From NCBI GenBank assembly GCA_964595725.1, contig CAZQRQ010000006.1:22165-86164 (forward strand): DNA of 64,000 bases, in the 5' to 3' direction. The first letter of the stretch is position 1; every line of letters begins with the position of its first letter. The notes below the pieces were generated by a model. That model saw nothing but the letters and a program-made list of their open reading frames with translations. It had not been told where the DNA came from and did no database searches. The DNA is from an uncultured Rikenellaceae bacterium (GTDB taxonomy: Bacteria; Bacteroidota; Bacteroidia; Bacteroidales; VadinHA17). Below, one piece after another: positions 25,838 to 45,388 of this stretch. The translations under genes and the position numbers were made by a program.

Positions 25838-25838
25838 A

Positions 25839-27377
25839 TCACATACCTAGTATTGCCGATGAATAATCACCTGGATTTAACAGTACATTAATTGCAGGGG
25901 TGAGTATATCTTCACGTAATGACGGTATTGCCAGAAGGCTGAGAAGCAGGCACATCAAAGCCATGATTATCATGCTGAATACCATCGGGAACGGAACTTC
26001 CTTAACTTTGCTGCGTTTTGCCTCCTGGTCCTGGTTGTGGAATGCATACCTCTGGAACTTCATGAAAGATGCTAGTGTGATAATGCTTGCCAGGACTGCC
26101 AGTGCAGCAAGAAGATAGAACCTTGCCATTACGGCAGCAATAATAATAATCAGTTTACTGAAAAACCCGTTAAATGGTGGAATTCCTGCTATAGAGAGTG
26201 AGGCAATCATCGATGTTGATGATGTGGCCGGCATAGCTTTTGCCAGGCCTCCCATTTCTTTCAGATCACGGGCACCTGTCGAATACTCTATAGCACCTGC
26301 ATTTAGGAAAAGCAAACCTTTGAAAGCAGCATGGTTGATAAGATGAAAAAGACCTCCTGTAAGTGCAAGAACTGCCACTTCATGCTTTATTCCCTTTGAT
26401 AACAGTATCATGCCCATTCCTGCAGCTAGTACAACATATCCCATTTGGCTTATGCTGTGATAAGCCAGGAGCCTCTTGATATCCCATTGTTCAATAGCCA
26501 GGAAGACACCTATCACCATCGAAACTGCTCCAAGGGTTGTCAAAAGGACTGCCATTGGAGTACTTATCTCGAACATGTTAAAGAATAGCCGTATAATTAC
26601 ATAGATACCTATAGCCTTAATCAATACACCTGAAAGCATGGCTGAAATGGGGGAGGGGGCTGATGAATGGGCGTCAGGAAGCCAGGAATGAAACGGTATT
26701 ATCGCTGCCTTTAGTCCAAAGCCGCTTAGAATCAGTAATTGTACAAAAAGATAATATTTCCTCTCGTAACCTTGAGAGAAGGCTTCCCTGATATCAGCTA
26801 TATTCAGAGTTTTTGCTTTCCAGTAGATAAGGCCTATGCCAAAAAGAATCAGGAAGGATGCCAGTCCCCCGAGAACCTGGTATTTGAAAGTTGCCTCCAG
26901 TTCAGGCTTCTCCACACCAAAAGCAACCAGGGCATAAGAAGAAATAGCTGATATTTCAACAAATACAAAAATATTAAAAATGTCTCCGCTAAGAACTACC
27001 CCGTTCATTCCTGCTATCATAAGACAGAAAAGAGAATAGAAATAATTTCCTGAAGTGTACCGGCTGATATATGAGATGGAGTATATTACAGCCAGGAATC
27101 CGAGTACATTTATAATACAGAGAATGATCACATTAAAGCTGTCGAGAACCATATATATTCCGACAGGTACATTGTTTACAGGTGCCCAGCCCCCAACCCT
27201 GTATACGGAAAACCCTCCTGTATTTCCTGCCAGTGCTGAAACAGAAAGCACAACAAGAGATAAAAGCAGCAGGCTGGCAAGATACTTGTTCAACTCCCTG
27301 AAGAATTTTCCGAGTATCATTATCAGGAAAGCTCCTGCTAATGGTATAACAACAAATAATGGCAACATCGGATTCAT
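25839..27377 (-). CDS. MrpD / NuoM/N-like proton-conducting antiporter subunit
   Basis: 512 aa polytopic membrane protein with complex I antiporter-like motifs (WLPDAHSSAPSPISAMLSG, LAYHSISQMGY). Confidence 0.85.
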   Translation of the reverse strand: MNPMLPLFVVIPLAGAFLIMILGKFFRELNKYLASLLLLSLVVLSVSALAGNTGGFSVYRVGGWAPVNNVPVGIYMVLDSFNVIILCIINVLGFLAVIYSISYISRYTSGNYFYSLFCLMIAGMNGVVLSGDIFNIFVFVEISAISSYALVAFGVEKPELEATFKYQVLGGLASFLILFGIGLIYWKAKTLNIADIREAFSQGYERKYYLFVQLLILSGFGLKAAIIPFHSWLPDAHSSAPSPISAMLSGVLIKAIGIYVIIRLFFNMFEISTPMAVLLTTLGAVSMVIGVFLAIEQWDIKRLLAYHSISQMGYVVLAAGMGMILLSKGIKHEVAVLALTGGLFHLINHAAFKGLLFLNAGAIEYSTGARDLKEMGGLAKAMPATSSTSMIASLSIAGIPPFNGFFSKLIIIIAAVMARFYLLAALAVLASIITLASFMKFQRYAFHNQDQEAKRSKVKEVPFPMVFSMIIMALMCLLLSLLAIPSLREDILTPAINVLLNPGDYSSAILGM

Positions 27378-27380
27378 CTT

Positions 27381-27719
27381 TTACCCTCTTAAGTTTTTAA
27401 TCTCCCTGATATCGAATGTCTTGTATTTTCTGTATATCCTTATTATTACCGCCATAAGCATTGCAGTTGTAGCCAGGCCGATCACAATTGCGGTAAGTAC
27501 AAGTGCCTGCGGAAGCGGATCCACATAGTTCTTTATCGGATCAGACGGATCTACTATTGGGGCAACACCACCTTCCCTGTATCCGATGAGTGCCAGGAAA
27601 AGAAAGGTGCTGAACTCAATGATACTTAGTGATATCACTATCTTAATCAGGTTCCTTCTTGTAAACACGCCGTACAATCCGGTCAGGAACAATATGAAGC
27701 ATAAAATGTAAACTATCAT
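27381..27719 (-). CDS. MrpC / NuoK-like subunit
   Basis: 112 aa, 3 TM helices. NuoK/MnhC-like, with LTAIVIG..A and embedded Glu residues. Confidence 0.8.
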   Translation of the reverse strand: MIVYILCFILFLTGLYGVFTRRNLIKIVISLSIIEFSTFLFLALIGYREGGVAPIVDPSDPIKNYVDPLPQALVLTAIVIGLATTAMLMAVIIRIYRKYKTFDIREIKNLRG

Positions 27720-28153
27720 TTCGACATTTCTTCTTTGAAAATTATGAGAGCAAGGAAGATGGAAAGCACTGATGCTGCTACTTCTATGCCAATAAAAATA
27801 TTATAAAGCGGTAGTGTACCGGCACTGACCAGCTCTCCGGTAACTCCCCTGGGCAGCCAGTTATTGAAGAAAATTCCGGTACCAGCCAGCAGGCCTGCTG
27901 TCGCAATCATTAATGCAATAAGTATTGCCAGGTTCTCTATCAGTGTGGTACCTGTTTCTTCATTTAAAAGTTTAATAAAATCACTTCCAAATGCAAGTAT
28001 CACCAGGATAAATGAACCGGCAAGGATCACACCCCCTGCAAAACCGCCTCCGGGAGTAAGATGCCCGTGCACAATTACATAAATACCGTAAAGAAACACA
28101 AGCCCCGCTATCAGCTGGGTAGTTTTCTTTACTATTACCGTCATCCCTTTCAT
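27716..28153 (-). CDS. MrpB/MnhB-domain subunit
   Basis: 145 aa, 4 TM helices. Has the GHLTPGGGFAGGV motif of the MnhB domain. Confidence 0.75.
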   Translation of the reverse strand: MKGMTVIVKKTTQLIAGLVFLYGIYVIVHGHLTPGGGFAGGVILAGSFILVILAFGSDFIKLLNEETGTTLIENLAILIALMIATAGLLAGTGIFFNNWLPRGVTGELVSAGTLPLYNIFIGIEVAASVLSIFLALIIFKEEMSK

Positions 28154-28172
28154 TTAAGCAGATTTTAAATAA

Positions 28173-28700
28173 TTACTTTTTACCTTTTATCCTTAAAACT
28201 GTCAGTACACCAATAACTGCCGTAACAAGCACCGTAGCCTCTCCCAGAGTATCATAACCCCTGAAGTCAAATATTACTCCTGTAACAAGGTTGGCACTGC
28301 CTGTTTTTGAAGCTGCTCCGTCTATATACGTCTCGGCCATCCTCAGGTTACCTTCCCCGAACGGGGCAAGGGTAGAAGCGGCAGATTTGAAAAAGTATAG
28401 CAGTACAAGGAGGATAAGGACAGCTGATATGGCATTTATGTAGCCCTGCCTGTCAGGTTTTGTGAAAGCCTCCTCACGTGAGCTGTCAAGGACCACGGCA
28501 ACCATTATTACAAGCGAGATAGTCTCCACAACAATCTGTACTATTGCCAGGTCGGGTGCTCTTAGTAAAAGGAAACATATAACGAGTCCGTAGCCCACTA
28601 TACCACCTGATATAACTGCCGAAAGAAGGTCCCTGGCATGAATGGCATAGAGAGCCCCGAAGATCATTAAGACAATTATAACCGAAATAGCCACTTCCAT
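28173..28700 (-). CDS. MbhD/MbhE-like subunit (equivalent to the C-terminal part of MrpA)
   Basis: 175 aa, hydrophobic. It sits between the NuoL-like and MrpB-like genes, where the MrpA C-terminal domains are expected. DUF4040-like pattern. Confidence 0.65.
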
Positions 28701-28715
28701 AGAAGCCTCTTTTAA

Positions 28716-30620
28716 TTATATCATTATCAATAACATTATTATCAAGCCTGCGAATACCCACAGTATGTATCCTGTCAGAACACCGTTATGGGCATCGCTG
28801 AAGATTTTCCCTAACCAGAAAACAAACCTCCTGGAAAGGTCATATACGTCAAACCATTTGCGGTCTGCCTTCCTGTAAAACCAGGAAATCAGCCTGAACT
28901 CATTTACTGTTTTATAGAATTCAGGTGTGGAATAAGATGTCACTTCGCGAAGATCCTCTCCGCCTATAAAGCTGTCATCGGTGCGAAATTTCTTTATTGC
29001 CGTTGAGAGGTAGATGATGATGCCAATTATTATTGATATCAGGACGAGAGCGGATACAGTTATTGAATCCCAGAATCCTGTGAATTCGAATGTGCCTGAT
29101 ATTGGCATAAATAATGCTGGTACAACAAGCCGGGTTGCAAAAATACCTAAGCCAATACACAGGAGTGCCAGAATAACCTGAGGTATCCACATTAAAGGCT
29201 TCACTTCTTTTATTTCCAGAAGTTCCTGCTTTTTACGGCCAAGGAAAATACCTCCCACCAACTTAATAAAGCTTGCCAGTGTAAGAGCAGAGCCAAGCAC
29301 GGCAAGCCCAAGCCATACTATCCATAACTGGTTGGCAATTCCTGTACCATTTCCGAATTCAATTATACCCTGGTAAATCATCCATTTTGATGCAAATCCA
29401 TTGAACGGAGGAACCCCCGAGATAGACATTGCAAACACCAGTGACGCAAAAAAAGTAAACGGCATAGCCTTTGATAATCCTCCCAGGTCCTCTATATTAT
29501 CAATGCCGGTTTGTTGTTCGACAGAACCGGCGGCCAGGAATAAGCCACTTTTATATATTGCATTATTCAGCATATGGAAAAGCCCTGCTGCCACACCTAT
29601 CATCGATCCGAGACCAAAACCGACTATCATATAACCTACCTGTGAAACTGCATGGAATCCCAGCAGCTTCTTGTAGTTATGCTGTACAAGTGCCATCATA
29701 ACAGCTGTTATAATGGTAACAACACCTGTGATAAGAAGTATCAGCTGCATAATATCGGTGAGGATAAATATATTACATGTAATCCTTGCCAAAAAATAGA
29801 TACCAAGCAGTTTATCTAGAGATGCAGGCAGAAAAGCAGTTGAAGATGCAGGTGCCTCCCTGGAGTAGTCAGGAACCCATGTGTGGAATGGGAATGCACC
29901 TGCTTTTGTAAAACTACCGATAAGTAGTGCTATGAATGACGCTATTGCGAGGCCACCGCTTGTGGAGACAGACATTTCGCTCACATTAAATGAACCCGTC
30001 ATCTTCCAGAGTATACCAATCCCAATTATCATGACACTGTCTGATGCGCCGATAAGTATTAGGGTCTTCTTGGCTGCTGCCGAACTATCTTCATCATCAC
30101 CATGGATAAGCCTGTAAAGGGTTATCCCAAGGATGCCCCAGAAGAAAAGGAAGACAAGGAGGTTATCAGAAAGAACAGCTCCTGTTGAACAGCCCAGTGT
30201 GATAAGAAAATATGAGTAGTAGTTCTTAACCCGGTCTTTCTTCTGATATGCAAGCGAATAGAGAAGCATAAGGAATGTGAAAATACTTATGCAAACGACA
30301 ATCAATTTGCTCAACCCGTCACTTCTGAATGATATAAAGTCAGCTGTACCGCTGATTATCCCCTGTTCGCCATTTCCGCTTTTACCCAGTATTTCTGCCA
30401 GTGTTATCGTCTCTGTTTGTGTCCTGAATAAAACCAGTGTGAAGAAAATTGACAATGCACTTATTAACAGTGATGTAATCCCCTTAAGGAGTTTTAGCCT
30501 ATCGGTGATACAGAAAAGGATCATTCCGGTAATTACGGGTATAAGTATGGAACTGGTAATTCCGAAATTCAACATTCCGGCATTCACGGGATCTGTAATT
30601 ATATTAAGCAACTCTGTCAT
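28716..30620 (-). CDS. MrpA N-terminal / NuoL-like antiporter subunit
   Basis: 634 aa polytopic membrane protein with the motifs HTWVPDYSREAPASSTAFL and LGFHAVSQVGYM. Confidence 0.85.
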   Translation of the reverse strand: MTELLNIITDPVNAGMLNFGITSSILIPVITGMILFCITDRLKLLKGITSLLISALSIFFTLVLFRTQTETITLAEILGKSGNGEQGIISGTADFISFRSDGLSKLIVVCISIFTFLMLLYSLAYQKKDRVKNYYSYFLITLGCSTGAVLSDNLLVFLFFWGILGITLYRLIHGDDEDSSAAAKKTLILIGASDSVMIIGIGILWKMTGSFNVSEMSVSTSGGLAIASFIALLIGSFTKAGAFPFHTWVPDYSREAPASSTAFLPASLDKLLGIYFLARITCNIFILTDIMQLILLITGVVTIITAVMMALVQHNYKKLLGFHAVSQVGYMIVGFGLGSMIGVAAGLFHMLNNAIYKSGLFLAAGSVEQQTGIDNIEDLGGLSKAMPFTFFASLVFAMSISGVPPFNGFASKWMIYQGIIEFGNGTGIANQLWIVWLGLAVLGSALTLASFIKLVGGIFLGRKKQELLEIKEVKPLMWIPQVILALLCIGLGIFATRLVVPALFMPISGTFEFTGFWDSITVSALVLISIIIGIIIYLSTAIKKFRTDDSFIGGEDLREVTSYSTPEFYKTVNEFRLISWFYRKADRKWFDVYDLSRRFVFWLGKIFSDAHNGVLTGYILWVFAGLIIMLLIMI

Positions 30621-31822
30621 TTTCTGCTATTATGCTTTTCCATTATTTCTCCGGTTAAAGTGGCCGATGAACTAATAAGCTCATTGGCGTTCATCAGCCT
30701 GACCCCGGAGTTAATATCAAATACAGCAGCCATCCTCTCTGTGCAGCAGTAACATGGATCAACGGCTGCCAGTGAAATGGTGGCATCCGAAATACTCTGG
30801 CCAATGCACGATTTCCGGAAAGTTGCAATATTGACGTAGCTTGGAGCCCTTATTTTATGTCGTGCCGGTGAGTTGGACCCATCCGAGAAGACACAGTGAA
30901 ATACTTCGCCTCTTGGTGCTTCAGCACGCCCCGTTCCCATTCCCTCAGGTATCTCCTTGATCTTAGCAGCTATTTCACCCTCTTTAAGCTTCCTTAAGGC
31001 TGCAAGACACTGTTCTATAATGGAGATCGATTCATACATCTCGAGAAGCCTGACCTCTGCCTTTGCATAGACATCGCCCGTTTCGGCTGTTATTACTTTC
31101 CAGTTAACCAGATCATAAGCTGCATAGGGATCATCTTTCCTGACATCAATAGCCACTCCCGACGCCCTGGCTGTCGGGCCAACAGCTGCATAATCAAGTA
31201 TATCCTGCTTTGTAAGGATGCCGACACCTTTAGTCCTGGCATGAATTACAGGATCATCCATCACAGCTCCCGTCAGCAGGTCTGTCTTTTTCTTAAGTTC
31301 TCCTAGAACTTTTTCCACAGATGGTATTTTGTGTGCTTCTATGTCTCTCCTGACTCCCCCTATCTTGAACATGGCATAGCTGTTCCTGTTTCCTGTTATC
31401 ATTTCGAAAAGTTCAAGCACCGGTTCGCGGTATTTCCATGCCCACATGAAGACCGTATTGTAACCGAGGAAATGTCCGGCCAGCCCAACCCATAGAAGAT
31501 GGCTGTGAATTCTTTCCAGCTCCCCGATTATGGTCCTTATATATTTAGCCCTGTCGGGTATTTCCTCGTTCACTATCTCTTCCACGGCATTGGCGAATGC
31601 GAAAGGGTGGGAGGTGGAGCATATTCCGCAGATCCGCTCTACAAGGAAGAATACCTGGTCATAAGTTTTGGATTCTGAGAGTTTCTCTATACCACGATGG
31701 TTGTATCCTGTTTCCCACTTGATATCCCTGACAATTTCCCCGTCACAGTAAAGTTTGAAAAGTTCAGGCTCTTCCTGCAGTGGGTGATACGGACCGATTG
31801 GTATTAATGTTGGTTTGCTCAT
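30617..31822 (-). CDS. group-4 [NiFe] hydrogenase large (catalytic) subunit, NuoD/MbhL/EchE-like
   Basis: 401 aa. N-terminal ligand motif ERICGICSTSH, C-terminal DPCYCCTER, then a 38-aa tail. Confidence 0.9.
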   Translation of the reverse strand: MSKPTLIPIGPYHPLQEEPELFKLYCDGEIVRDIKWETGYNHRGIEKLSESKTYDQVFFLVERICGICSTSHPFAFANAVEEIVNEEIPDRAKYIRTIIGELERIHSHLLWVGLAGHFLGYNTVFMWAWKYREPVLELFEMITGNRNSYAMFKIGGVRRDIEAHKIPSVEKVLGELKKKTDLLTGAVMDDPVIHARTKGVGILTKQDILDYAAVGPTARASGVAIDVRKDDPYAAYDLVNWKVITAETGDVYAKAEVRLLEMYESISIIEQCLAALRKLKEGEIAAKIKEIPEGMGTGRAEAPRGEVFHCVFSDGSNSPARHKIRAPSYVNIATFRKSCIGQSISDATISLAAVDPCYCCTERMAAVFDINSGVRLMNANELISSSATLTGEIMEKHNSRK

Positions 31823-31830
31823 ACTTCAGA

Positions 31831-32268
31831 TCATTTGAACTCTTTTCTGTAGGGATAAACACCTTCTGCCCAGTTGCCTTCAGAGATAAGCTTCTCCTGG
31901 TTCGGATGGTTTATGAAATCGATGCCGAAAAGTTCATGCATCTCACGTTCTATCCAGTTTGAAGCGTTAAACATGTTAGAAAGAGATTCAATGTGAGGGT
32001 TTTCATGACTCAGCATTACATGTATATTAAGCACCAGCCCCGTCTCGTCCTTGCTGAAATGGTAATGTATCTCGAATCCCGTCCTGGTATGAAGTGCAGA
32101 TGCAATTATGAACCTCAGCCCTGCGTCTTTGTAAAGATGCTCAGCCATGCCTGTAATTGCCTCCGGATTAATAGTTATGGTTACCCTCTTCTCATTTTTC
32201 ACGGCAATATTCAGGATGTAAGCCCTGAACTTCTCTTGAATCTTGTTTATAATCTCTTCCGTATTCAT
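31831..32268 (-). CDS. NuoC/MbhK-like hydrogenase subunit
   Basis: 145 aa with an ANWIEREMHELFGIDF motif (NuoC/30 kDa family). Confidence 0.85.
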   Translation of the reverse strand: MNTEEIINKIQEKFRAYILNIAVKNEKRVTITINPEAITGMAEHLYKDAGLRFIIASALHTRTGFEIHYHFSKDETGLVLNIHVMLSHENPHIESLSNMFNASNWIEREMHELFGIDFINHPNQEKLISEGNWAEGVYPYRKEFK

Positions 32269-32334
32269 CTGTATTCATTTTCCATTTCTTGCTCACCTCT
32301 TTCATTTACCATCCGGGGAGGTGATTCCTGGGTG

Positions 32335-32745
32335 CTATTTTCCGGCAAGTTTCACTATACCTGCAATTATTGCTTCTGGTTTTGGCGGACACCCCGGAAT
32401 ATATGCATCAACCGGTATTATTTTATCGACTGGACCAGCAAAAACATTTCCCTCGGCAAAGATGCCCCCTGTGCACCCGCAGGCTCCTATTGCAACGACA
32501 AGAACAGGTTTCGGTGCCTGGTTATATATCTCCAGCAGCCTGTCGCGATCGCGCCTGTTAATGGAACCATTTACAAGGAGTACATCGGCATGTCGTACAC
32601 TGCCGACCAGCAATATTCCAAATCTTTCCAGGTCGTGCTTCGGGGTGAGGCAGTCCAGGATCTCGATGTCACAGTTATTACAGGACGCCCCGCCGAAGTG
32701 GAAAATCCAGAGTGATTTTTTGAAGCAATAGCTTTTAAAACCCAC
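32335..32745 (-). CDS. NuoB/MbhJ-like hydrogenase small subunit (proximal 4Fe-4S)
   Basis: 136 aa with the Cys ligands GGASCNNC, GACGCTGG and IPGCPP. Confidence 0.9.
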   Translation of the reverse strand: MGFKSYCFKKSLWIFHFGGASCNNCDIEILDCLTPKHDLERFGILLVGSVRHADVLLVNGSINRRDRDRLLEIYNQAPKPVLVVAIGACGCTGGIFAEGNVFAGPVDKIIPVDAYIPGCPPKPEAIIAGIVKLAGK

Positions 32746-32757
32746 AGCTTTCTGTAT

Positions 32758-33690
32758 TTAATATCCAAATATTATCAACACTATAGCAATCACAGCAAGC
32801 AGATTCATCCATATCATGAAGAAGCTCATTGCCTGTTTTATCTTAAGCCTGGGATTGGTGTTTCTTATAAGAGTCAGAAGCAGCACAATGCCCAGTATCT
32901 TTAACACTGCCCAGAGTATGTTAACACCGGTGAGGTTGATACCATTCATCATCAGAGCAGTAATAAAAGCCGGTAGAATAAAGAACATGATGTACTTTGT
33001 CAGCTTTATTAGTGCGTAGGCAGAACCTGAATACTCAATAAAAGCACCTTCGGTTATTTCAGTTTCAGCCTCAGCCATATCGAACGGAACAAGAGCAAGC
33101 TTAGCCTGTATGCAGAAAACAGCCACAATGAACAGCAGTACGCCTGAAACACTTCCTATGAAAGGAGACCCGTTCTGCTGGGCTTCAATTATACCATTAA
33201 TATCAATATGCTGTCCGGCCTTCATTACAATGCCCGCCACAACCAGGATAAATGTAAGCTCATAGCTGAGGATCAGTTTCATTTCCCTTGATGCCCCTAC
33301 CGCCGCGAGTGGATTGCCTGATGCTAAAGCTCCTATTACATAAGAGAATGATGGTATTGTAAGAAGGTAAAACACGACGAGCACATCTCCTTTAAAACCT
33401 GTTGCAATGTTAAAAAGCGGTAGCAGGATAAAGACAGAAGCCATAGTTGCCCCGAAAAGAGCGAAGATGGGTGCAAGCAGGAAGATCAGGGGTGATCCCT
33501 GTTTTGGCAATATTGTCTCCTTTACCAGCAGCAACTTGAAGAAATCGTAGAATGGCTGTAATATTGGAGGCCCTTTCCTGAACTGGAGCCGCGCTGTTAT
33601 TTTCCTGTCGAACCAGGAGAGAAATCCCCCCGTTATCCCGGAAAATAAGAGACCGGGAAAGACAAGAAAATAAAAGAGATAGGCTGCCAT
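32758..33690 (-). CDS. NuoH/MbhM/HycD-like membrane subunit
   Basis: 310 aa, ~8 TM helices. Motifs RKITARLQFRKGP and PFDMAEAETE, the latter being the NuoH signature. Confidence 0.85.
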   Translation of the reverse strand: MAAYLFYFLVFPGLLFSGITGGFLSWFDRKITARLQFRKGPPILQPFYDFFKLLLVKETILPKQGSPLIFLLAPIFALFGATMASVFILLPLFNIATGFKGDVLVVFYLLTIPSFSYVIGALASGNPLAAVGASREMKLILSYELTFILVVAGIVMKAGQHIDINGIIEAQQNGSPFIGSVSGVLLFIVAVFCIQAKLALVPFDMAEAETEITEGAFIEYSGSAYALIKLTKYIMFFILPAFITALMMNGINLTGVNILWAVLKILGIVLLLTLIRNTNPRLKIKQAMSFFMIWMNLLAVIAIVLIIFGY

Positions 33691-33700
33691 AACTAATATA

Positions 33701-34198
33701 TTACTGATTATCCTGTTTATAAATTATATCCTTGACAAGAACCTTATCATTAAGCTTGAAAATGTTTGATCCTGGAGCTTCCCTGGCATCTGTGATTGTA
33801 ACTGTACCCGGGGGACATGCAGCAACAAATTTTTCCATCTCCGACGTATCACTCAGATTGTAAAACAGATCCCTGTTGCGGTGATGACTGAAAAAATCGA
33901 CCATCATTGTCCCGAATGGGCATATTGTAACACACGATTTACACGACACACAGAGATTGGTATAACGATTAATTACACCCTCCTCATCTTTTTCAAGTGC
34001 TTCGGCAGGACATGCAGCTATACATGGAGCATCTTCGCATTTTCTGCATGTATACCTGAAGGTCGCCAGTTCAATGATACTTTTAAGGCCGTTATTGTTA
34101 GGCTGAATGTAGAAAAATCCTTCAGGTAGTTTTCTCTGCGGATTTTCTGCCATTGCTGCCCGAAGCCTTATCATATCTATCAATATCTTTTGCGCCAT
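33701..34198 (-). CDS. HycB-like 2x[4Fe-4S] ferredoxin-domain electron-transfer subunit
   Basis: Motifs CRKCEDAPCIAACP and CVSCKSCVTICP. I chose the start at MAQKILID (34198), 1 nt after the upstream stop. The track start at 34267 would overlap the upstream gene by 68 nt. Confidence 0.75.
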   Translation of the reverse strand: MAQKILIDMIRLRAAMAENPQRKLPEGFFYIQPNNNGLKSIIELATFRYTCRKCEDAPCIAACPAEALEKDEEGVINRYTNLCVSCKSCVTICPFGTMMVDFFSHHRNRDLFYNLSDTSEMEKFVAACPPGTVTITDAREAPGSNIFKLNDKVLVKDIIYKQDNQ

Positions 34199-34199
34199 A

Positions 34200-35024
34200 T
34201 CAGTTCCAGATGTTGGGTTGATCCTTAATCTCATCATAGGTAAATACCGGCCCGTCCTTGCAGACAAAGTATTTTCCCATCATGCAGTGTCCGCATTTTC
34301 CAAGTCCGCACGACATGTTTTTCTCCATAGAGAGGTATATATCATGCTCTGGATATCCCATCTGAAGCAATTTCAGAGTTCCAAACTTCATCATTATTGG
34401 CGGGCCGCAGACCACGGCAATAGAGTTATCAATGTCGACTTTAACATCATCAAGCAGCACAGTAACAACCCCGACACGCTCGGTCCAGGTGTCATCCCCT
34501 CTGTCAACGCTCCTCAGTACCTCAAATTTCGGAGTATCGCGGAGTACCGAGATATATGGCTTGTAGATACAATCCTCAGGCGTTTTCGATCCATAACAAA
34601 GAGTTACCTTTCTCAGCTTGTCGGAGATTGCTATAAGCGAATACAGTAATGATCTTATAGGAGCAAATCCGCAACCTCCTCCCAGGATCAGCACCTCCTT
34701 GTCGTAAAATTTCTCAACGGGATATCCTCTCCCGTATGGCCCTCTTATGCCCATATATGATCCCGGCTTCATATTGTGCATGTATTCAGTAACATATCCG
34801 GTCTTCATGATTGTGACCTCAATCGTGTCTTTTACTAGTGGTGATGAAGATGGTGTGAAGGGAGCCTCGCCTATATTTTCAACCGATAATTCAATAAACT
34901 GACCTGTTCCGAACGAAAATTCCTCCTGGGGAGAGAGCACAAAAGTCCTGATCAGAGGTGATTCCTCAATAACGTCTGTCAATTTTGCCCTTATCGGCCT
35001 GTATATGTTCTTTTTATTAGGCAT
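34200..35024 (-). CDS. FNR-fold FAD/NAD(P)-binding protein with C-terminal [2Fe-2S] (sulfhydrogenase gamma / AsrB / PyrK-like)
   Basis: 274 aa. FAD motif APFTPSS, nucleotide motif LILGGGCGFAPI, C-terminal cluster CGLGKCGHCMMGKYFVC. Confidence 0.85.
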   Translation of the reverse strand: MPNKKNIYRPIRAKLTDVIEESPLIRTFVLSPQEEFSFGTGQFIELSVENIGEAPFTPSSSPLVKDTIEVTIMKTGYVTEYMHNMKPGSYMGIRGPYGRGYPVEKFYDKEVLILGGGCGFAPIRSLLYSLIAISDKLRKVTLCYGSKTPEDCIYKPYISVLRDTPKFEVLRSVDRGDDTWTERVGVVTVLLDDVKVDIDNSIAVVCGPPIMMKFGTLKLLQMGYPEHDIYLSMEKNMSCGLGKCGHCMMGKYFVCKDGPVFTYDEIKDQPNIWN

Positions 35025-35030
35025 ATCGGC

Positions 35031-36023
35031 TTATTTTGCCAGTTCCCTGAATATTTCATTTTTGTTGATCCTTCCGATGCATGCTTCAATGCACCTGCCG
35101 CAGCCTGTACAGGCCACTGACCTGAACCGCGCCGGTTTCCATACATACTTGCATTTATACCTGTTCATGAATCTGAGAGATAGCTCATGAAGGGCATCCT
35201 CGCCTCCCGCAACCCTTTCAAATCCCGGATACTGACATGCATCCATCTGCTTGACTTTGTGAAATCCGGGTTTGTCAAGCAGGAGGAAGCAGCTGCAGGT
35301 AGGACAAATGGTCGTGCATGCACCACACGAAACGCATTTGCCGGAGTATTTCTCCCAGACTCCCATACCAGCGTTCTCGACCAGCTTCCCCGTGGCTTTA
35401 TAGTCGGGTAAACCTGTATTGGAAGCATTCAGGAGCACCCCGACTTCCTTTCTTTTCTTGTCTATATATGCTTCAATATCACGGTCATTCATGATATTAA
35501 CACCTTCAAGCCGTTGTATCAGCGCTGCACCTTTATCAGAAATATCCCTGAGGATCACAGAACCATTGTACAGAATTACCGAGATATCAGCATTTCTTTC
35601 AGCAAATGGACTAATACCATATGCAGTACAGTGGCAATGTTCCTGAATATTAAAACAATCAGTTGAGATTATCAGCGTGTTTTCCCTTCTGTTCCTGTAA
35701 AAGATATCCTCAAAAGTATCATCAAGATATATCTCGTCAAGAATATTCAAAGCCTCAACATCACAATTGGGAACTCCAATTATTATCCTGGGCCTGTCCC
35801 CTTTGGGAAGGGACGATACATTTTCCTTGACAGGCAGGAAAAAGCTCTTGAGAGGAGTAACGGGCTTTGCCTTATTATAACTTATTTCGGCTATATTTAC
35901 CGATGACAGGATCTGATAATCTTGAGTATTTCCGTTATTTACCGAAGCATAAATCAGGAAATCTCCGGTCAGACCTTCCAGATTCCTATCCCATTTCTCC
36001 CTATTAATTATATGATATTTCAT
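35031..36023 (-). CDS. 4Fe-4S dicluster protein (sulfhydrogenase beta / AsrA-like), first gene of the hydrogenase operon
   Basis: 330 aa with CVSCGACTTICPTCSCF and CTGCGRCIEAC, plus additional Cys (CHCTAYG). Confidence 0.8.
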   Translation of the reverse strand: MKYHIINREKWDRNLEGLTGDFLIYASVNNGNTQDYQILSSVNIAEISYNKAKPVTPLKSFFLPVKENVSSLPKGDRPRIIIGVPNCDVEALNILDEIYLDDTFEDIFYRNRRENTLIISTDCFNIQEHCHCTAYGISPFAERNADISVILYNGSVILRDISDKGAALIQRLEGVNIMNDRDIEAYIDKKRKEVGVLLNASNTGLPDYKATGKLVENAGMGVWEKYSGKCVSCGACTTICPTCSCFLLLDKPGFHKVKQMDACQYPGFERVAGGEDALHELSLRFMNRYKCKYVWKPARFRSVACTGCGRCIEACIGRINKNEIFRELAK

Positions 36024-36025
36024 TT

Positions 36026-36043
36026 ATGTGAGAAGTATCACAT
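36026..36043. promoter_or_regulatory. Rex-type operator candidate 1 (ATGTGAGAAGTATCACAT)
   Basis: Perfect TGTGA-N6-TCACA palindrome 3 nt upstream of the ATG of the first hydrogenase-operon gene. It resembles the Rex consensus TTGTGAAnnnnTTCACAA. Confidence 0.55.
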
Positions 36044-36210
36044 ATAAAAGTATATCGTTGAATAATTTACTTAAATGAAAATTGTCAGGGTTTTTATTGT
36101 TATTTTATTAACAAGCCAGTTAATAAATTATATATCAGTATGATAATTATAATGTTTTTTTTGATAAAAAAATAATTATCTTGCACTAATACATTGGTTA
36201 AATTATTTTG

Positions 36211-36228
36211 ATGTGAAACAAATCACAA
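36211..36228. promoter_or_regulatory. Rex-type operator candidate 2 (ATGTGAAACAAATCACAA)
   Basis: TGTGAA-N4-(A)TCACAA palindrome with 2 mismatches to the 14 specified consensus positions. It overlaps the GTG start (36213) of rex itself. Confidence 0.6.
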
Positions 36229-36893
36229 AATATGTAATCAAGAACAGCCTGAAGAGGATATTCCTTTACCGGTCGAGTCTTCTGAGGCTGAAGAAAATGG
36301 GAGTACAAAGGATCTTCTCTTATACCCTGGCAAATGAAACAGGAGTGACACCGGACCAGGTTAGAAAGGATTTTTCTGAATTTGGGATCAGGGGAAATAA
36401 GAGAGGCGGTTATGAGATTGATGATCTTCTGCATGCGATGGAAGACATATTTCACAGAAACAAGGACAATAACATAGTGCTTATCGGCATGGGAAACCTC
36501 GGCCAGGCCCTTTCAAAGTACAGCAGGTTCGTTCAGCGGAACATGAATATCGTTGCCACATTCGATATAGACCCTTTTAAACAGAAGATGAGATCGGGTA
36601 TGCCTGTGTATAATATGAGCAGGCTTAAAGAAATAGTTGACAGGTTTAAGGTAAGGGTTGCCATACTGGCCGTGCCTGAAATCTCTGCACAGGAGGTCGC
36701 CGATGAGGTGATAAAATACGGTATCAAGGGTATAATAAATTTTGCCCCGGTGCTTCTGAAAGTACCGGGCGACATAGTCGTAAATAACGTAAACCTGTGT
36801 GATGAGCTGGAGAGCGTCATCTACTATGTGCATCATATCCTCAAAGCCGACGGTCTTAAAAACATAAGTATATTATACGGGGATACGAAATAA
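36213..36893 (+). CDS. rex: redox-sensing transcriptional repressor Rex
   Basis: 226 aa. N-terminal winged-helix region (LKRIFLYRSSLLRL..VTPDQVRKDFSEFGIRGNKRGGYEI) and a Rossmann NAD(H) domain (IVLIGMGNLGQAL). GTG start: no in-frame ATG lies upstream before a stop. Confidence 0.9.
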   Translation: MKQITKYVIKNSLKRIFLYRSSLLRLKKMGVQRIFSYTLANETGVTPDQVRKDFSEFGIRGNKRGGYEIDDLLHAMEDIFHRNKDNNIVLIGMGNLGQALSKYSRFVQRNMNIVATFDIDPFKQKMRSGMPVYNMSRLKEIVDRFKVRVAILAVPEISAQEVADEVIKYGIKGIINFAPVLLKVPGDIVVNNVNLCDELESVIYYVHHILKADGLKNISILYGDTK

Positions 36894-39136
36894 TGATAAA
36901 AGGGCTGGTTCAGGGGGTCGGTTTCCGGCCTTTTATTTACAGGCTGGCAACAAACTACCACCTGAAAGGTGAAGTTGATAACAGGACAAATGGAGTTTTG
37001 ATTTCAGTTGAAGGGGAAGAAGAGAATGTTTTCCTGTTCAGGGATGCTGTTCTTAATTCAGCGCCAGCGGCTTCTCAGATAAAATCTGTTGATGTAAGGG
37101 AAAAGAAACTTGCGGGATTTACAACCTTTGAAATAGTACGGAGCCGTGACGATCTGAACCAGATCACTGAAATAAGCCCTGATATAGCTGTTTGTGATGA
37201 GTGTATATCGGATATGACCAATGATGAGAACAGGAAAGACTATCCATTTATAAATTGCACAAACTGCGGTCCCAGGTTTTCAATTATCGAAGGATTGCCT
37301 TACGATCGTGAAATGACCTCAATGAAAGTATTTCCGATGTGCCCTGACTGTGAAAAGGAGTATAATGATATTTCCGACAGGAGATTTCATGCCCAGCCGA
37401 TAGCATGCAATAAATGCGGTCCGGCTTATTCTTACACAGATACCGAAAGGTCGGCAGAAAGAATCAGTGAAATACTGGATTTGATAGCTTTAAGGATCAA
37501 CAGGGGAGAAGCTGTGGCAATCAAGGGATTAGGCGGATATAACCTCGTATGTGATGCCCTGAATGAAAATGCCGTGCATGAGCTGAGATTAAGGAAACAA
37601 AGAGATGCCAAGCCATTTGCTGTAATGTTCCGTGATATTGAGGCAGCAGGGGAGTTCTGTCATCTGACAAAAGAGGAGAGACAATCACTGGAATCATGGA
37701 AAAGACCTATCGTCATACTGGATCAGATGAAATCACTGGCTCCATCTGTGAATAATGGTCTGAATACCGTAGGAGCAATGCTGCCTTACCTGCCTCTTCA
37801 CTACCAGATATTTAAGAAGACAGATACTCCGGCAATAGTACTTACTAGTGGTAATCTCTCTGATGAACCTATTATTATCGATGATGATATAGCTTTTAAG
37901 AAGCTGATGCCTGTTGCCGGGGCTGTTGTGACAAATAACAGGGCGATTGTGAACAGGTGTGATGATTCCGTCATCAGATATTACGATAAGAAACCAGGGA
38001 TGATAAGAAGATCAAGAGGATTCGTACCATCTCCCATTGATCTTAAGATGAATGCAGATGGTATACTGGCTCTGGGGGCCGAGCAAAAAAACACTTTTAC
38101 CATAGGAAGGGATAACCAGGCGATTATGAGCCAGTATATTGGTGATCTCAAAAACTATCCCGCTTATACATTCCTATGTGAGGCTGTTGACAGGTTCAGG
38201 AAGATGTTTCTCTTTGAACCTGCAATGATTGCATGTGACCTTCATCCTGATTATCTTTCTACCTCACATGCCAGGCTTCTTGAAGAGCAACTCGGAATAC
38301 CGCTTGTAAAGGTCCAGCACCATCATGCACACATTGCGTCATGCATGGCTGAACAAAGCCTGGACGAGGAAGTAATTGGTATATGCCTTGATGGTACAGG
38401 CTTCGGAGCCGATGGTAATACCTGGGGCAGTGAATTCTTCAGAGCTGGTCTTTCCGGTTATACAAGGTTGACGCATTTTGATTATATCCCGTTACCGGGA
38501 GGTGATAAGGCGGTTGATGAACCATGGCGAATGGCTGTCTCATATATTTATAAGTATTTTGGCAAAGCATTTAACTACCAATCGGTTCCCTCGCTGAAAC
38601 AAATACCGGATGATAAGATAGCCCTGGTGATCGAGATGATTGAAAAAGGTATTAATACACCGCTTACATCAGGAGCAGGCCGGCTTTTTGATGCTGTATC
38701 AGTGATCACGGGTCTTTGTATTGAGTCTGCCTTTGACTCGGAGGCACCTATGCGTCTTGAATCCATTGCTGATCCCAAGGTCAGGGATCATTATCCTTTC
38801 AGGTTGGGTGAGTGTATTGTCTTCTCAGACACTATAAAAGCTGTTATGGAAGACCTGGGAAAAGCTGATGTGGCGGTTATTGCAGCTAGGTTTCACAACA
38901 CGGTTGCTGAAGCCATTGTCCAGACCGCCATTAAGATTCGTGAAAGTACTTACCTGAACAATGTTGTGCTGTCAGGAGGGGTCTTCCAGAACAGGTATCT
39001 GCTTGAGAGGTGCCTGGGAATGCTTGAAAAAAATAACTTTATAATCAATACCAACAGGCTAGTACCGGCAAATGACGGGGGAATTTCCCTGGGCCAGCTT
39101 GCTGTGGCATCAAAAATCAGAGAATTATGTGTCTGA
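36893..39136 (+). CDS. hypF: [NiFe] hydrogenase maturation carbamoyltransferase HypF
   Basis: 747 aa. Acylphosphatase motif VQGVGFRP, two Zn-finger pairs (CDEC..CTNCGPR, CPDC..CNKCGP), and YrdC-like and Kae1-like domains. The start overlaps the rex stop (TAATG). Confidence 0.95.
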   Translation: MIKGLVQGVGFRPFIYRLATNYHLKGEVDNRTNGVLISVEGEEENVFLFRDAVLNSAPAASQIKSVDVREKKLAGFTTFEIVRSRDDLNQITEISPDIAVCDECISDMTNDENRKDYPFINCTNCGPRFSIIEGLPYDREMTSMKVFPMCPDCEKEYNDISDRRFHAQPIACNKCGPAYSYTDTERSAERISEILDLIALRINRGEAVAIKGLGGYNLVCDALNENAVHELRLRKQRDAKPFAVMFRDIEAAGEFCHLTKEERQSLESWKRPIVILDQMKSLAPSVNNGLNTVGAMLPYLPLHYQIFKKTDTPAIVLTSGNLSDEPIIIDDDIAFKKLMPVAGAVVTNNRAIVNRCDDSVIRYYDKKPGMIRRSRGFVPSPIDLKMNADGILALGAEQKNTFTIGRDNQAIMSQYIGDLKNYPAYTFLCEAVDRFRKMFLFEPAMIACDLHPDYLSTSHARLLEEQLGIPLVKVQHHHAHIASCMAEQSLDEEVIGICLDGTGFGADGNTWGSEFFRAGLSGYTRLTHFDYIPLPGGDKAVDEPWRMAVSYIYKYFGKAFNYQSVPSLKQIPDDKIALVIEMIEKGINTPLTSGAGRLFDAVSVITGLCIESAFDSEAPMRLESIADPKVRDHYPFRLGECIVFSDTIKAVMEDLGKADVAVIAARFHNTVAEAIVQTAIKIRESTYLNNVVLSGGVFQNRYLLERCLGMLEKNNFIINTNRLVPANDGGISLGQLAVASKIRELCV

Positions 39137-39357
39137 GCGTACCGGCACGGGTGATAAGGATTGAAGGACAGATGGCGGATGTCTCAGTGGGAGGAACTGT
39201 ATTCAAAGCGGGTCTTCACATGTTAGAAGATGTCAGCGTGGGAGATTACGTTCTTCTTCATACTGGATTCGCCATCCAGAAGATTAGCGAGGAGGAAGCT
39301 GTTGAGACAATGAAACTCCTTAAGGAAATAGACGAGGCAAACAAGCGGGATGGATGA
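39127..39357 (+). CDS. hypC: hydrogenase assembly chaperone HypC/HupF
   Basis: 76 aa with the characteristic MCLSVPARV N-terminus. Confidence 0.9.
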   Translation: MCLSVPARVIRIEGQMADVSVGGTVFKAGLHMLEDVSVGDYVLLHTGFAIQKISEEEAVETMKLLKEIDEANKRDG

Positions 39358-40439
39358 AGTATATCGAGGAATACCGAAACAGCGATCTGATCCATAGTCT
39401 TGCCACCCTTATTAACAGGGTAGCAGTCAGGGAATATACTTTTATGGAGGTATGCGGAGGACATACTGCTGCCATTCACAGGTTTGGAATTCCTTCCCTG
39501 TTGCCAGCTGGCATAAGGCTTATCTCCGGACCCGGCTGCCCGGTGTGCGTTACCAGCCGGGAATATATCGACAGGGTGGTTGCCTGTTCCGGACTTAAGG
39601 ATGTAATAGTGGCCACATTTGGAGACCTGCTCAGGATACCCGGATCAGATACATCACTCGAAAAGCAGAAAGCTTCCGGGGCAGATATCCGTATCGTTGT
39701 ATCAGCCCTTGATGCTCTTTCGCTTGCAACCGGTAATCCCGGGAAAAAGGTTTTGTTCCCTGCTATAGGTTTTGAAACCACTGCCCCCGGTACCGCGGTT
39801 ACAATAAAGGAGGCTTTTAAAGCCGGGGTAAATAATTTCTTCGTGCTGAGCGCCCATAAGATTATGCCTCCAGCCATGGAACTTCTGATACGGGATGGTG
39901 TAAAGATTGATGGATTTATCTGTCCCGGACATGTGGCAGCAATAACAGGCTCAAAAATATTCGGTTTTATACCGGAGGGATATGGTCTAGGCTGCGTGGT
40001 GACAGGATTTGAGCCAACAGATCTGTTGCAGGCTGTTTATATGCTTGTGCAGCAGGTAAATACGAATAAACCTGAAATCCAGATACAGTACTCCCGGGCA
40101 GTCACATTTTCCGGCAACGAAAAGGCGGTTAATCTCATGGATGAGATTTTTGTAAAGGCTGACGATTACTGGAGGGGATTCGGGATTATACCCGGTAGCG
40201 GCTTAAAGCTTGGGAAAAAGTATGAGAGATTTGACGCAGAAAAGGCAATGCCTGTCAAGGTAAATACCAGGGAAGACGACAGGGCATGTATATGCGGTGA
40301 AATCCTGAGAGGTCTTAAAACTCCCGATGAATGTAAACTGTTCGGGAGCAGATGTAAGCCTGACAATCCTGTTGGAGCCTGCATGGTCTCGAATGAAGGA
40401 GTATGCAATACTTATTATAAATACAGATCCGATGCATGA
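39354..40439 (+). CDS. hypD: hydrogenase formation protein HypD
   Basis: 361 aa with CGGHT, GPGCPVCV, FETT and PGHV motifs. Confidence 0.95.
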   Translation: MKYIEEYRNSDLIHSLATLINRVAVREYTFMEVCGGHTAAIHRFGIPSLLPAGIRLISGPGCPVCVTSREYIDRVVACSGLKDVIVATFGDLLRIPGSDTSLEKQKASGADIRIVVSALDALSLATGNPGKKVLFPAIGFETTAPGTAVTIKEAFKAGVNNFFVLSAHKIMPPAMELLIRDGVKIDGFICPGHVAAITGSKIFGFIPEGYGLGCVVTGFEPTDLLQAVYMLVQQVNTNKPEIQIQYSRAVTFSGNEKAVNLMDEIFVKADDYWRGFGIIPGSGLKLGKKYERFDAEKAMPVKVNTREDDRACICGEILRGLKTPDECKLFGSRCKPDNPVGACMVSNEGVCNTYYKYRSDA

Positions 40440-41439
40440 TATAATTACTTTGAATCATGGCAGCGGGGGGCTTACTGCCAGCAAGCTCATACGGGAGATG
40501 TTTGCTGACAGGTTCGGTATGGATGAACCACTTACAGATTCTGCTGCCGTTGAGCTTCAGGGTTTAATGTTGGCATTTACAACGGACTCGTATGTTATTG
40601 ACCCTGTATTCTTCCCAGGTGGTAATATCGGGAAGCTGGCTGTGTGTGGAACTATTAACGATCTTTGCGTAGCCGGTGCGACACCTCAGTACCTTTCGGC
40701 TGCCTTTATAATTGAAGAAGGATTTCCTGTTGATGAACTGAGGCAGATTGTGGATTCAATGTCAGAAGAATCCCGTGGAGCAGGCGTCAGAATAGTCACT
40801 GGCGATACCAAGGTCGTTGAAAGGGGTAAGTGCGACAGGATTTTTATAACAACTTCCGGTACGGGTATTATAAGGCCTGGACTTGAGCATATTGGCAAAG
40901 CAGATAAGGTGAAGCGGGGAGATTGCCTTCTTATTAACGGACCTCTGGGGAATCACTCAATAGCGGTTCTGGGTGCAAGAAAGGAGCTTTCCTTTACAAC
41001 GCCTGTTACTTCAGATTGTGCATCCCTGAAAGATCTCATCTCAGATATTCTTCAGGTATCCGGTAATGTCCATTTTATGAGGGACCTTACCAGGGGAGGA
41101 CTGGCGTCAGTGCTGAATGAGCTTGCCAATATGATATCTGAAGGTATTGTTGTCGATGAAAGCTCTATACCGGTAGATGAACCGGTTGCAGGCCTGTGCG
41201 AGATGTTCGGGTTTGACCCGTTATACCTGGCCAATGAGGGAAAGCTGCTTGTTGTTGTGTCAGAAGACGATACTGAAAAGGTGCTTAGAGTAATGAGGAG
41301 TAATCCTCTGGGAAGCAACTCGGGTTTAATCGGCAGGATATCCGGTGAGACAGGGGGCAGGGTGGTGGTAAATACTTTTACAGGAGGCAGGAAAATACTG
41401 GATTTACCTTCCGGGACCCAGCTTCCGAGGATATGTTAA
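40432..41439 (+). CDS. hypE: hydrogenase expression/formation protein HypE
   Basis: The start at MHDIITLNHGSGG (40432) overlaps the hypD stop by 8 nt. AIR-synthase-like fold. C-terminal PRIC motif. Confidence 0.9.
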   Translation: MHDIITLNHGSGGLTASKLIREMFADRFGMDEPLTDSAAVELQGLMLAFTTDSYVIDPVFFPGGNIGKLAVCGTINDLCVAGATPQYLSAAFIIEEGFPVDELRQIVDSMSEESRGAGVRIVTGDTKVVERGKCDRIFITTSGTGIIRPGLEHIGKADKVKRGDCLLINGPLGNHSIAVLGARKELSFTTPVTSDCASLKDLISDILQVSGNVHFMRDLTRGGLASVLNELANMISEGIVVDESSIPVDEPVAGLCEMFGFDPLYLANEGKLLVVVSEDDTEKVLRVMRSNPLGSNSGLIGRISGETGGRVVVNTFTGGRKILDLPSGTQLPRIC

Positions 41440-41449
41440 TACTACAATT

Positions 41450-41791
41450 ATGCACGAACTGGCAATAGCAAAGGAATTATCGGGAATAGTCTATGAAGTG
41501 GCCGGAAGGGAAAACCTGGAGAAGGTCACGAAGATTGATGTATGCTTTGGACAGATGATACAGGTTGTCCCCGAGATATTCACTTTTGCCCTCGAGGAAA
41601 CAATACGTGATACGGTTGCAGATGGAGCTGAGATAGCGATAGAAGTGTTGCCGGCGATCCTGCTCTGCAGAAGTTGCGGCAGAGAGTTCAAGCTGGAGAA
41701 CAACACCTTTGTTTGTCCCGGTTGTGGTTCATCTGAGATTGAGATGAAGCAGGGCAGGGAGATATATGTAAAAAGTATAGAAGGAGAATAG
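41450..41791 (+). CDS. hypA: hydrogenase nickel insertion protein HypA
   Basis: 113 aa with the MHE N-terminus and a Zn site CRSC..CPGC. Confidence 0.85.
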   Translation: MHELAIAKELSGIVYEVAGRENLEKVTKIDVCFGQMIQVVPEIFTFALEETIRDTVADGAEIAIEVLPAILLCRSCGREFKLENNTFVCPGCGSSEIEMKQGREIYVKSIEGE

Positions 41792-41793
41792 AT

Positions 41794-42438
41794 ATGGAAA
41801 TCAAGATTATGAAAAACATTCTGGACAGGAACCAGAATAAGGCAAACGAAGTGAGAAAGATACTTCACGAAAACAAGGTTCTGATGGTCAATCTTATTAG
41901 CTCCCCGGGAGCCGGTAAGACTACCCTTCTTGAAAGGACATGTGCGGCATTATCGGAAAGCATTAAGATTGGTGTGATAGAGGGCGATGTTACCACTGAC
42001 AGGGATGCACAACGGCTTGCCAGGTACAATATACCTATAGTGGTTATCAACACTGAAGGCGGTTGTCATCTCGACTCGCACAGCATATCAAAAGTACTGC
42101 CTGAGTTCGACCTTCAGAACCTGGAAATACTTTTTGTGGAAAATGTTGGGAACCTTATCTGCCCCACGGCATTCGACCTTGGCGAAGAATTCAAGGTCGC
42201 AGTTGTCAGCACGGCAGAAGGCGATGATAAACCGGGTAAGTATCCAATGATCTTCAGGGATGCCAGGGCCGTCATACTTAACAAGACAGACCTGATACCG
42301 TATACAAACTTCAGCATGAAGAGTTTCAGGAATGATCTGGCAAGGATCAATTCGAGGGTACCTCTTTTCGAGGTATCATGTACAAAAAAGACCGGCCTTG
42401 ATGCCTGGTATAAATGGTTGAGGGAAAAGATCTTTTAA
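41794..42438 (+). CDS. hypB: hydrogenase nickel incorporation GTPase HypB
   Basis: 214 aa. P-loop SSPGAGKTTLL, CH motif (GGCHLD), ENVGNLICP, NKTDL. No His-rich N-terminal stretch. Confidence 0.9.
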   Translation: MEIKIMKNILDRNQNKANEVRKILHENKVLMVNLISSPGAGKTTLLERTCAALSESIKIGVIEGDVTTDRDAQRLARYNIPIVVINTEGGCHLDSHSISKVLPEFDLQNLEILFVENVGNLICPTAFDLGEEFKVAVVSTAEGDDKPGKYPMIFRDARAVILNKTDLIPYTNFSMKSFRNDLARINSRVPLFEVSCTKKTGLDAWYKWLREKIF

Positions 42439-45057: not shown

Positions 45058-45388
45058 TTTTATTTATGAATATGAAGGATTTACTAATTGTTTGATGACC
45101 ATCGATCCGGTACACCTTTTAACAAGATAATAAAAAAAAATGATTATTAATAATCCGGCTATCATTTTTGTTATTAACGGATTATTTGCTAACTTATAAC
45201 AATATTACCAGTTTGAACCTGGCTGCAAGATTTGTTAAAATCGGTCTGAAAACTTACAATAGTTTATTTTCATTCTAAATTAAAAAGTATGACATAAGTA
45301 AGTTTTTTATTGATCCTATTGTTTTTAAATTCACAGTTTCAAAAATTTTTAGTTTTTCTAATAAAAATAATTTAAAATTTTAACCGAA

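Follow-up and report, generated by a model that had tools for sequence, protein, structure and literature searches.

The 64-kb window analysed here (64,000 nt of contig CAZQRQ010000006.1 from an uncultured Rikenellaceae bacterium, VadinHA17) contains a [NiFe] hydrogenase operon and, diverging from it, the repressor gene rex joined to a set of [NiFe] maturation genes, and the short spacer that separates the two transcription units is marked at either end by a palindrome. We designate these palindromes O-hyd (site 1, on the hydrogenase side) and O-rex (site 2, on the rex side) and ask what protein, if any, they serve. The central features of the locus are as follows:

23293..36023, minus strand: group-4 membrane-bound [NiFe] hydrogenase operon, running from 36023 down to about 23293.
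36026..36043, no strand assigned: O-hyd (site 1), ATGTGAGAAGTATCACAT, adjoining the start codon of the hydrogenase operon.
36211..36228, no strand assigned: O-rex (site 2), ATGTGAAACAAATCACAA, overlapping the GTG start and codons 1-5 of rex.
36213..36893, plus strand: rex, 226 amino acids with a GTG start, Pfam PF06971 and PF02629.
36893..42438, plus strand: hypF-hypC-hypD-hypE-hypA-hypB, [NiFe] maturation genes, assigned by Pfam.

The spacer itself (36024-36212) measures 189 nt between the minus-strand ATG at 36021-36023 and the plus-strand rex GTG at 36213. An earlier reading of this DNA, hereafter the original prediction, had placed two Rex-type palindromes in it between divergent operons, and inspection of the sequence locates both exactly there. 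On the minus strand, the hydrogenase operon opens with genes for a sulfhydrogenase beta/AsrA-like Fe-S protein, a gamma/AsrB-like FAD/NAD-binding protein and a 4Fe-4S protein, continues with NuoH-, NuoB- and NuoC-like subunits followed by a NuoD-like large subunit (30617-31822), and closes with several Mrp/Mbh antiporter-like subunits and a HycI-like protease. Because the large subunit bears both Ni-Fe cysteine motifs, RICGICSTSH and DPCYCC, the operon encodes a genuine membrane-bound [NiFe] hydrogenase of group 4 whose input module is of the NAD(P)H type; the products of its first two genes are similar to sulfhydrogenase subunits beta and gamma, which bind NAD(P)H, and this fits the earlier suggestion of an enzyme that uses pyridine nucleotides. 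An AsrA/AsrB-like NAD(P)H module encoded ahead of a group-4 Mrp-Mbh-type [NiFe] enzyme is an unusual hybrid in its own right, and similar 'enigmatic' clusters have been noted in Saganbacteria genomes (PMC6349859).

On the plus strand, the assignment of the adjacent gene to rex, on which the original prediction depended, proved sound. Besides the two Pfam domains, the protein scores 212.6 bits on the NCBIfam Rex equivalog (cutoff 138) and aligns to solved Rex structures (PDB 3KEO, 3WG9, 2VT2 and 3IKT) with E = 2e-37 to 3e-28, and the alignments display the GMGNLG dinucleotide-binding motif (GxGxxG), the RKDFS recognition helix and the C-terminal helix, the first two of which are conserved among the Rex homologues. 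The locus thus supplies the cognate regulator expected of a Rex operator (ROP), a protein in which a winged helix at the N-terminus is followed by a Rossmann domain for NAD(H) at the C-terminus. Downstream, hypF overlaps the rex stop codon (TAATG).

To describe the sites we distinguish a strict core, TGTGA-N6-TCACA, from a relaxed core, TGT[GT]A-N6-T[AC]ACA. The strict core has exactly two matches in the window, both in the spacer (36027-36042 and 36212-36227), whereas shuffled windows yield a mean of 0.04 matches and reach two in just 1 of 100 shuffles. Likewise, a position matrix trained on 156 orthologous sites scores O-hyd and O-rex at 26-27 bits, with the next best window position at 6.5 bits, no better than shuffles, and the strict matrix scan of the 64 kb returned no additional site above chance; having been trained on invariant arms, however, this matrix cannot detect TGTTA/TAACA variants. 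As a palindrome, site 1 is perfect over 7+7 positions (TATGTGA/TCACATA) and extends to 36025-36044, while site 2 is perfect over 5+5 only. The form ATGTGA...ATCACA, which the original prediction gave as common to both sites, holds in this genome and fails in the relatives, most of which have TTCACA at site 1 and among which the conserved form is the strict core.

The canonical ROP, TTGTGAAnnnnTTCACAA, is described for Streptomyces, Staphylococcus, Bacillus and Thermus (PMC2883068; Ravcheev 2012 via PMC5317091 and PMC13077300). When compared over its 14 specified positions, site 2 agrees at 12, site 1 at 10 and the relatives' site-1 consensus at 11, and all 10 of the 10 core positions agree at both sites, which bears out the proposed resemblance to the established Rex operator. 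The sites share with the canonical ROP their length, spacing and 10-bp core, as well as the two domains and the recognition-helix motif of the cognate protein; they differ from it in that the outer T/A and inner A/T pairs are relaxed (ATGTGA...TCACAT) and in that a TGTTA/TAACA variant co-occurs in the same genomes. The genes flanking them, namely a hydrogenase with an NAD(P)H-type module, hypFCDEAB and rex, are the targets expected of an ROP.

Conservation was assessed in 80 species-representative Bacteroidales loci (L001-L080; 635 kb of DNA in total), whose Rex proteins are 72-84% identical to the query; homologues of this Rex are annotated as belonging to Bacteroidales metagenome-assembled genomes. 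The original prediction had been staked in advance on the palindromes being kept in orthologous spacers, and they are: the strict core is exact at the rex start in 79 of 80 species and, beside the hydrogenase start, in 73 of the 76 whose available sequence reaches far enough, so that conservation in orthologous regulatory regions, a further hallmark of ROPs, is present at both sites. Across the 635 kb the strict core occurs 156 times, of which 153 occurrences fall at the two homologous positions, 2 lie mid-spacer and a single one is found elsewhere, 5' of a different hydrogenase operon (in locus L045). Chance origin in AT-rich DNA is excluded by the shuffles, by this count and by a per-locus null. 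Furthermore, the positions of both sites are fixed among loci, and the arms of site 1 are invariant while its inner six bases vary (GAAGAT, TAAGAT, TTGAAT, TTAAGT and others); invariant arms around a variable centre are the pattern of substitution that a DNA-binding dimer classically leaves as its footprint.

The surroundings of the sites are considerably more plastic in sequence than in layout. The flanking AsrA-like and HypF proteins are just 52-63% identical across loci and the middle of the spacer is poorly conserved. As to gene order, an AsrA-like gene lies 5' of rex in 74 of 80 loci, the first five hydrogenase genes keep their order in 71-74 of 80, and a hypF homologue begins at most 3 nt from the end of rex in nearly all of the 78 loci with a hypF match. 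The spacer measures 185-190 nt in 63 of the 70 loci where both starts could be placed, and the centre-to-centre distance between the operators is 181-185 bp in 69 of 72 species even though the intervening sequence drifts. A separation of 183 bp corresponds to about 17.4 helical turns at 10.5 bp per turn, so that a placement of both operators on the same face of the helix is not obvious.

Inverted repeats at the 5' ends of two genes might alternatively function as RNA, the palindromes forming hairpins in the 5' leaders that mask the starts or stabilise the transcripts with no DNA-binding protein involved. In keeping with this, both sites lie in or beside predicted leaders and start codons, and site 1 folds to -6.4 kcal/mol (z = -3.65). 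The stems are nevertheless short and weak, the rex leader folds no better than shuffles (z = -0.6), and arms that stay invariant in 73-79 species with no compensatory changes are what base-specific protein contact predicts, rather than structure alone; moreover, the same arm sequence recurs at both sites and 5' of the different operon in L045. We find the hairpin explanation barely credible. An Rfam scan of the whole window gave no matches, so no known RNA element explains the spacer.

The position of O-rex inside a coding sequence offers a way of separating constraint on DNA from constraint on protein. The rex start codon is GTG in 79 of 79 sequences and is preceded by T in 78 of 79, Thr5 is always encoded by ACA (79/79), and Ile4, where present, is always encoded by ATC (59/59). 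By comparison, at 145 equally conserved rex residues elsewhere the commonest codon has a mean share of 0.57, and other Thr and Ile codons of rex show top-codon shares of 0.38-0.66. The synonymous positions under O-rex are thus frozen, which indicates that the constraint acts on DNA, and this synonymous-site test rules out that site 2 owes its conservation to its coding role. Codons 7-12, in contrast, vary synonymously with their amino acids fixed, and the homologues keep the N-terminus from the GTG codon onwards, from which it follows that translation begins at GTG 36213. The NCBI copy of the identical Rex (P0002) is annotated as 198 amino acids from Met29, that is, 28 residues shorter (window 36213-36296), a form that would be without the first helix of the DNA-binding domain; judging by the codon pattern, the public start annotation of this rex is probably wrong.

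A box on a repressor's own start codon also bears on whether some other regulator, dedicated to hydrogenases (e.g. an H2 or nickel sensor), shares this half-site while Rex acts elsewhere. The confinement of the strict motif to this locus within the 64-kb window could indeed indicate a dedicated local regulator; yet rex is the only transcription factor gene at the locus, no other is conserved there, and where a box covers the start codon of a repressor gene, the encoded repressor is itself the most parsimonious binder. We therefore regard a separate hydrogenase-specific regulator as very unlikely.

The placement of the sites was further considered in relation to putative promoters. Sigma-A promoters of Bacteroidota carry a TAnnTTTG -7 box at -12 to -5 (PMC9723704, PMC7366714), and the commonest 5' untranslated region in B. 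thetaiotaomicron is 23 nt long (PMC7366714). Two candidate boxes were identified in the spacer:

36177..36184, plus strand: candidate -7 box for rex, TATCTTGC.
36045..36052, minus strand: candidate -7-like box for the hydrogenase operon, TACTTTTA.

A TAnnTTG[CT] or TAnnTTTG box ends 26-29 nt 5' of O-rex in 63 of 80 loci, and from it we predict a rex transcript start near 36189, a 24-nt leader and a location of O-rex at about +23 to +40, corresponding to a roadblock position. On the hydrogenase side, TAnnTTTA ends 2-4 nt 5' of O-hyd in 73 of 75 loci and predicts a transcript start near 36040, inside O-hyd, which would span about -3 to +15, the classic position for occlusion; this box is the weaker of the two assignments because its last base is A and not the consensus G. 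A different -7 box for rex, TTATTTTG (36203-36210) with CTTG as the -33 element, was considered and discarded, as transcription would then start at about 36215, past the GTG. A sigma-70 scan of the spacer, using a model inapplicable to Bacteroidota, gave 5 promoter-like sequences versus 2.6 ± 1.5 in shuffles, which is not significant, and a terminator scan of the spacer found none.

Two of the comparison loci reveal what becomes of the sites when the hydrogenase itself changes. In L045 (1380-3783) and L029 (168-2563) the membrane-bound operon beside rex has been replaced by the genes of another hydrogenase, with a HycI-like protease, an MvhD-like protein and a group-3-type small subunit (Mvh-type), and both loci keep site 1 together with about 100 nt of the 5' end of the former first gene. 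The extra strict-core copy in L045, ATGTGAACCCATTCACAA, is an exact box about 108 nt 5' of the mvhD-like gene, and L029 carries a one-mismatch copy at the equivalent place. The retention of site 1 in both indicates that the box stays with rex and the hydrogenase genes, whichever hydrogenase is present.

Beyond the strict motif, the relaxed core has 6 matches in the window against 0.36 expected. The original prediction mentioned neither a third palindrome in the spacer nor the class of site found next to a second hydrogenase operon, of the [FeFe] type:

36097..36114, no strand assigned: third, weaker palindrome, TTGTTATTTTATTAACAA, with TGTTA/TAACA arms, mid-spacer.
45319..45336, no strand assigned: candidate weak Rex-like site, TTGTTTTTAAATTCACAG, about 53 nt 5' of the [FeFe] hydrogenase operon.
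45389-48826, plus strand: HydABC-type [FeFe] hydrogenase operon (NuoE-like, NuoF-like, Fe-hydrogenase).

The third palindrome agrees at 13 of the 14 specified positions with the clostridial Rex motif, TTGTTAANNNNTTAACAA (e.g. PMC5367854, PMC8457756). It is not conserved in most relatives, and a perfect relaxed core occurs at the same offset from O-hyd in 6 of 68 species, including hybrid TGTGA..TAACA and full TGTGA..TCACA forms, against a null of 1e-4 per locus; given this recurrence, it is probably a real, lineage-variable auxiliary Rex site. For the [FeFe] operon we compared 61 unique upstream regions of metagenomic relatives (loci L081-L160), each covering the 200 nt 5' of the first gene. 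The relaxed core is present in 44 of the 61 (null 0.2%), as TGTTA..TAACA in 29 and as TGTTA..TCACA in 15, and the longer element TTGTTATTAA(A/T)TT(C/A)ACAG lies 68-81 nt 5' of the first gene in 40 of 61. The window copy at 45319-45336 has one extra mismatch, in the left arm. The third palindrome agrees with this element at 14 of 18 positions. The [FeFe]-upstream element probably represents Rex sites of a second and weaker class. The TAACA-form sites of the relatives agree with the clostridial motif at 12 of 14 specified positions. In Clostridia this motif is the main class, whereas here it is apparently secondary and probably weaker, beside the TGTGA sites.

Other matches to the relaxed core, and one further gene set, are recorded here as separate observations. 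Two relaxed-core palindromes 21 bp apart, CTGTTATTCCCGTAACAG and GTGTGAAAACATTAACAG, occupy 58478-58516 between a DUF2061-like/cysH/cysD/cysN-like operon on the minus strand and a YdeI/OmdA-like gene on the plus strand, and another, CTGTTATAATGGTAACAA (29705-29722), lies within the NuoL-like gene of the hydrogenase operon and may be due to chance. A heterodisulfide-reductase-like set at 263-3537 on the plus strand encodes a pyridine-nucleotide-disulfide oxidoreductase, a 4Fe-4S protein and a CCG-domain protein; no Rex-like site was found in the 262 nt upstream of it, although the set may begin outside the window.

The strict core raises the question of a different family of binding proteins altogether. 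TGTGA-N6-TCACA is the classical CRP consensus core, and the sites are identical to the E. coli CRP site in their 10-bp core and spacing; a CRP/FNR-family regulator encoded elsewhere could accordingly bind them and activate or repress both divergent operons, a possibility to which site 1 lends itself further, having AT-rich flanks and, in this genome, neither the outer T/A nor the inner A/T pair that the Rex consensus specifies (10/14). Unlike the CRP site, however, the sites described here are linked to rex and not to a crp-like gene, and they tolerate a G-to-T change at position 4 of the arm, that is, at the second G of TGTGA, a base central to recognition by CRP. The homologous positions admit TGTTA/TAACA arms, a known Rex variant, and hybrid sites (TGTGA..TAACA and TGTTA..TCACA) are found there; this G/T alternation mirrors the two published Rex consensus motifs and thus favours Rex over a CRP-type protein. 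In addition, the box sits on the rex start in 79 of 80 species and stays with rex when the hydrogenase changes, and a Pfam scan of 57 open reading frames of the window detected no cNMP-binding or Crp-type helix-turn-helix domain. Hydrogenases, a maturation operon and rex together constitute, moreover, a typical Rex regulon (PMC6391272). On balance, we deem a CRP/FNR-family binder unlikely.

We therefore favour, with a probability of roughly 0.8, the reading that the two palindromes are operators of the adjacent Rex and mediate NADH/NAD+-responsive repression of both operons, including that of rex itself. The sequence analysis establishes the sites and how well they are kept, the constraint at the level of DNA, and what Rex and the target genes are; binding by Rex, repression, the response to NADH and the promoter positions are inferred. 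Several observations weigh against Rex control. The motif alone does not name its binder, as its core is the same as that of CRP, and agreement with the Rex consensus is partial at its outer T/A and inner A/T positions, with 10 of 14 at site 1. Both -7 boxes are predicted and deviate from the promoter consensus, the one on the hydrogenase side having a terminal A, and O-rex lies 3' of its predicted start, which is unusual for simple promoter occlusion. Among the comparison loci, the three most divergent species (L073, L077 and L080) have site 1 with a 7-bp spacing or a degenerate arm; site 2 is intact in all three. As to the extent of the regulon, sites were sought in the window and, for the matched genes, in about 2-4 kb of flanking sequence per side.

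In the resulting model of Rex control, Rex dimers would occupy both operators when the NADH/NAD+ ratio is low. Bound at O-hyd, against the -7-like box and the predicted start, Rex would keep RNA polymerase off the [NiFe] hydrogenase operon, and at O-rex it would block transcription of rex and hypFCDEAB, a negative autoregulation that would also couple the maturation genes to the structural ones. As NADH rises, it would bind the Rossmann domain and cause Rex to leave the DNA, whereupon the enzyme and its maturation machinery would be made together and reducing equivalents could be shed as H2. The third palindrome and the [FeFe]-upstream site probably belong to the same regulon.

Hydrogenases under the control of Rex are well documented in Bacillota, and such control has been predicted for a number of further phyla. 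In Caldicellulosiruptor bescii, gel-shift experiments established that NADH-sensitive Rex binding controls the [NiFe] hydrogenase Ech, the [FeFe] hydrogenase Hyd, hydG and rex itself, a logic supported by gel-shift assays and deletion (PMC6391272), and Rex boxes have been predicted 5' of CODH/ECH operons (PMC13077300). The locus described here resembles the regulon of C. bescii and C. saccharolyticus (PMC6391272) in having boxes at a group-4 [NiFe] hydrogenase and at rex, with the [FeFe]-side site a candidate here, and in its 18-bp inverted repeat and its maturation genes; NADH-sensitive binding is shown there and predicted here. It departs from Caldicellulosiruptor, a member of the Bacillota, in belonging to the Bacteroidota with their different promoter architecture, in having rex as the first gene of the hypFCDEAB operon, in carrying the predicted autoregulatory box over the first codon of rex and not 5' of the gene, and in the sulfhydrogenase beta/gamma-like NAD(P)H module of its [NiFe] enzyme. 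Another parallel is found in Caldithrix abyssi, a non-Firmicute relative of Bacteroidota in which a box, cTGTGAATCAATTCACAt, has been predicted 38 bp 5' of rex in a rex-[FeFe] hydrogenase cluster (PMC5317091). There, too, rex is physically linked to hydrogenase genes, but with a single site and an [FeFe] enzyme only, and with neither a hyp operon nor a divergent operator pair. In the papers searched, no Rex regulon was described for Bacteroidota. The Rex-operator system itself is already known, and what is new is its setting: the phylum, the joining of rex to the hyp operon, the operator within the start codon and the two apparent operator classes.

A more far-reaching proposal, which we put forward tentatively and consider doubtful, is that Rex in this uncultured Bacteroidales lineage serves not as a regulator of metabolism at large but as a dedicated master switch of hydrogen metabolism, cotranscribed with the [NiFe] maturation genes and acting through two operator strengths (TGTGA/TCACA and TGTTA/TAACA) that order the hydrogenases. 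If so, rising NADH would set an order among the NAD(P)H-linked, ion-translocating Mrp-Mbh-type [NiFe] enzyme, the HydABC-type [FeFe] enzyme and, in some species, the Mvh-type enzyme, and the autoregulatory operator in the coding sequence would have fixed the GTG and the first five rex codons clade-wide.

The locus provides a natural example of an operator within a coding sequence that fixes a non-ATG start codon, and the analysis corrects the public start-codon annotation of this rex. Its regulation also hints at a link between the pool of pyridine nucleotides and those group-4 hydrogenases, still poorly understood, that carry a sulfhydrogenase beta/gamma-like module. The Bacteroidales metagenomes compared here derive from peat, sediment, lake and anaerobic digester, habitats in which methanogens and other consumers live on the H2 released by fermenters. 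A conserved switch that senses NADH and governs the hydrogenases would yield a testable rule for when these Bacteroidales release H2.

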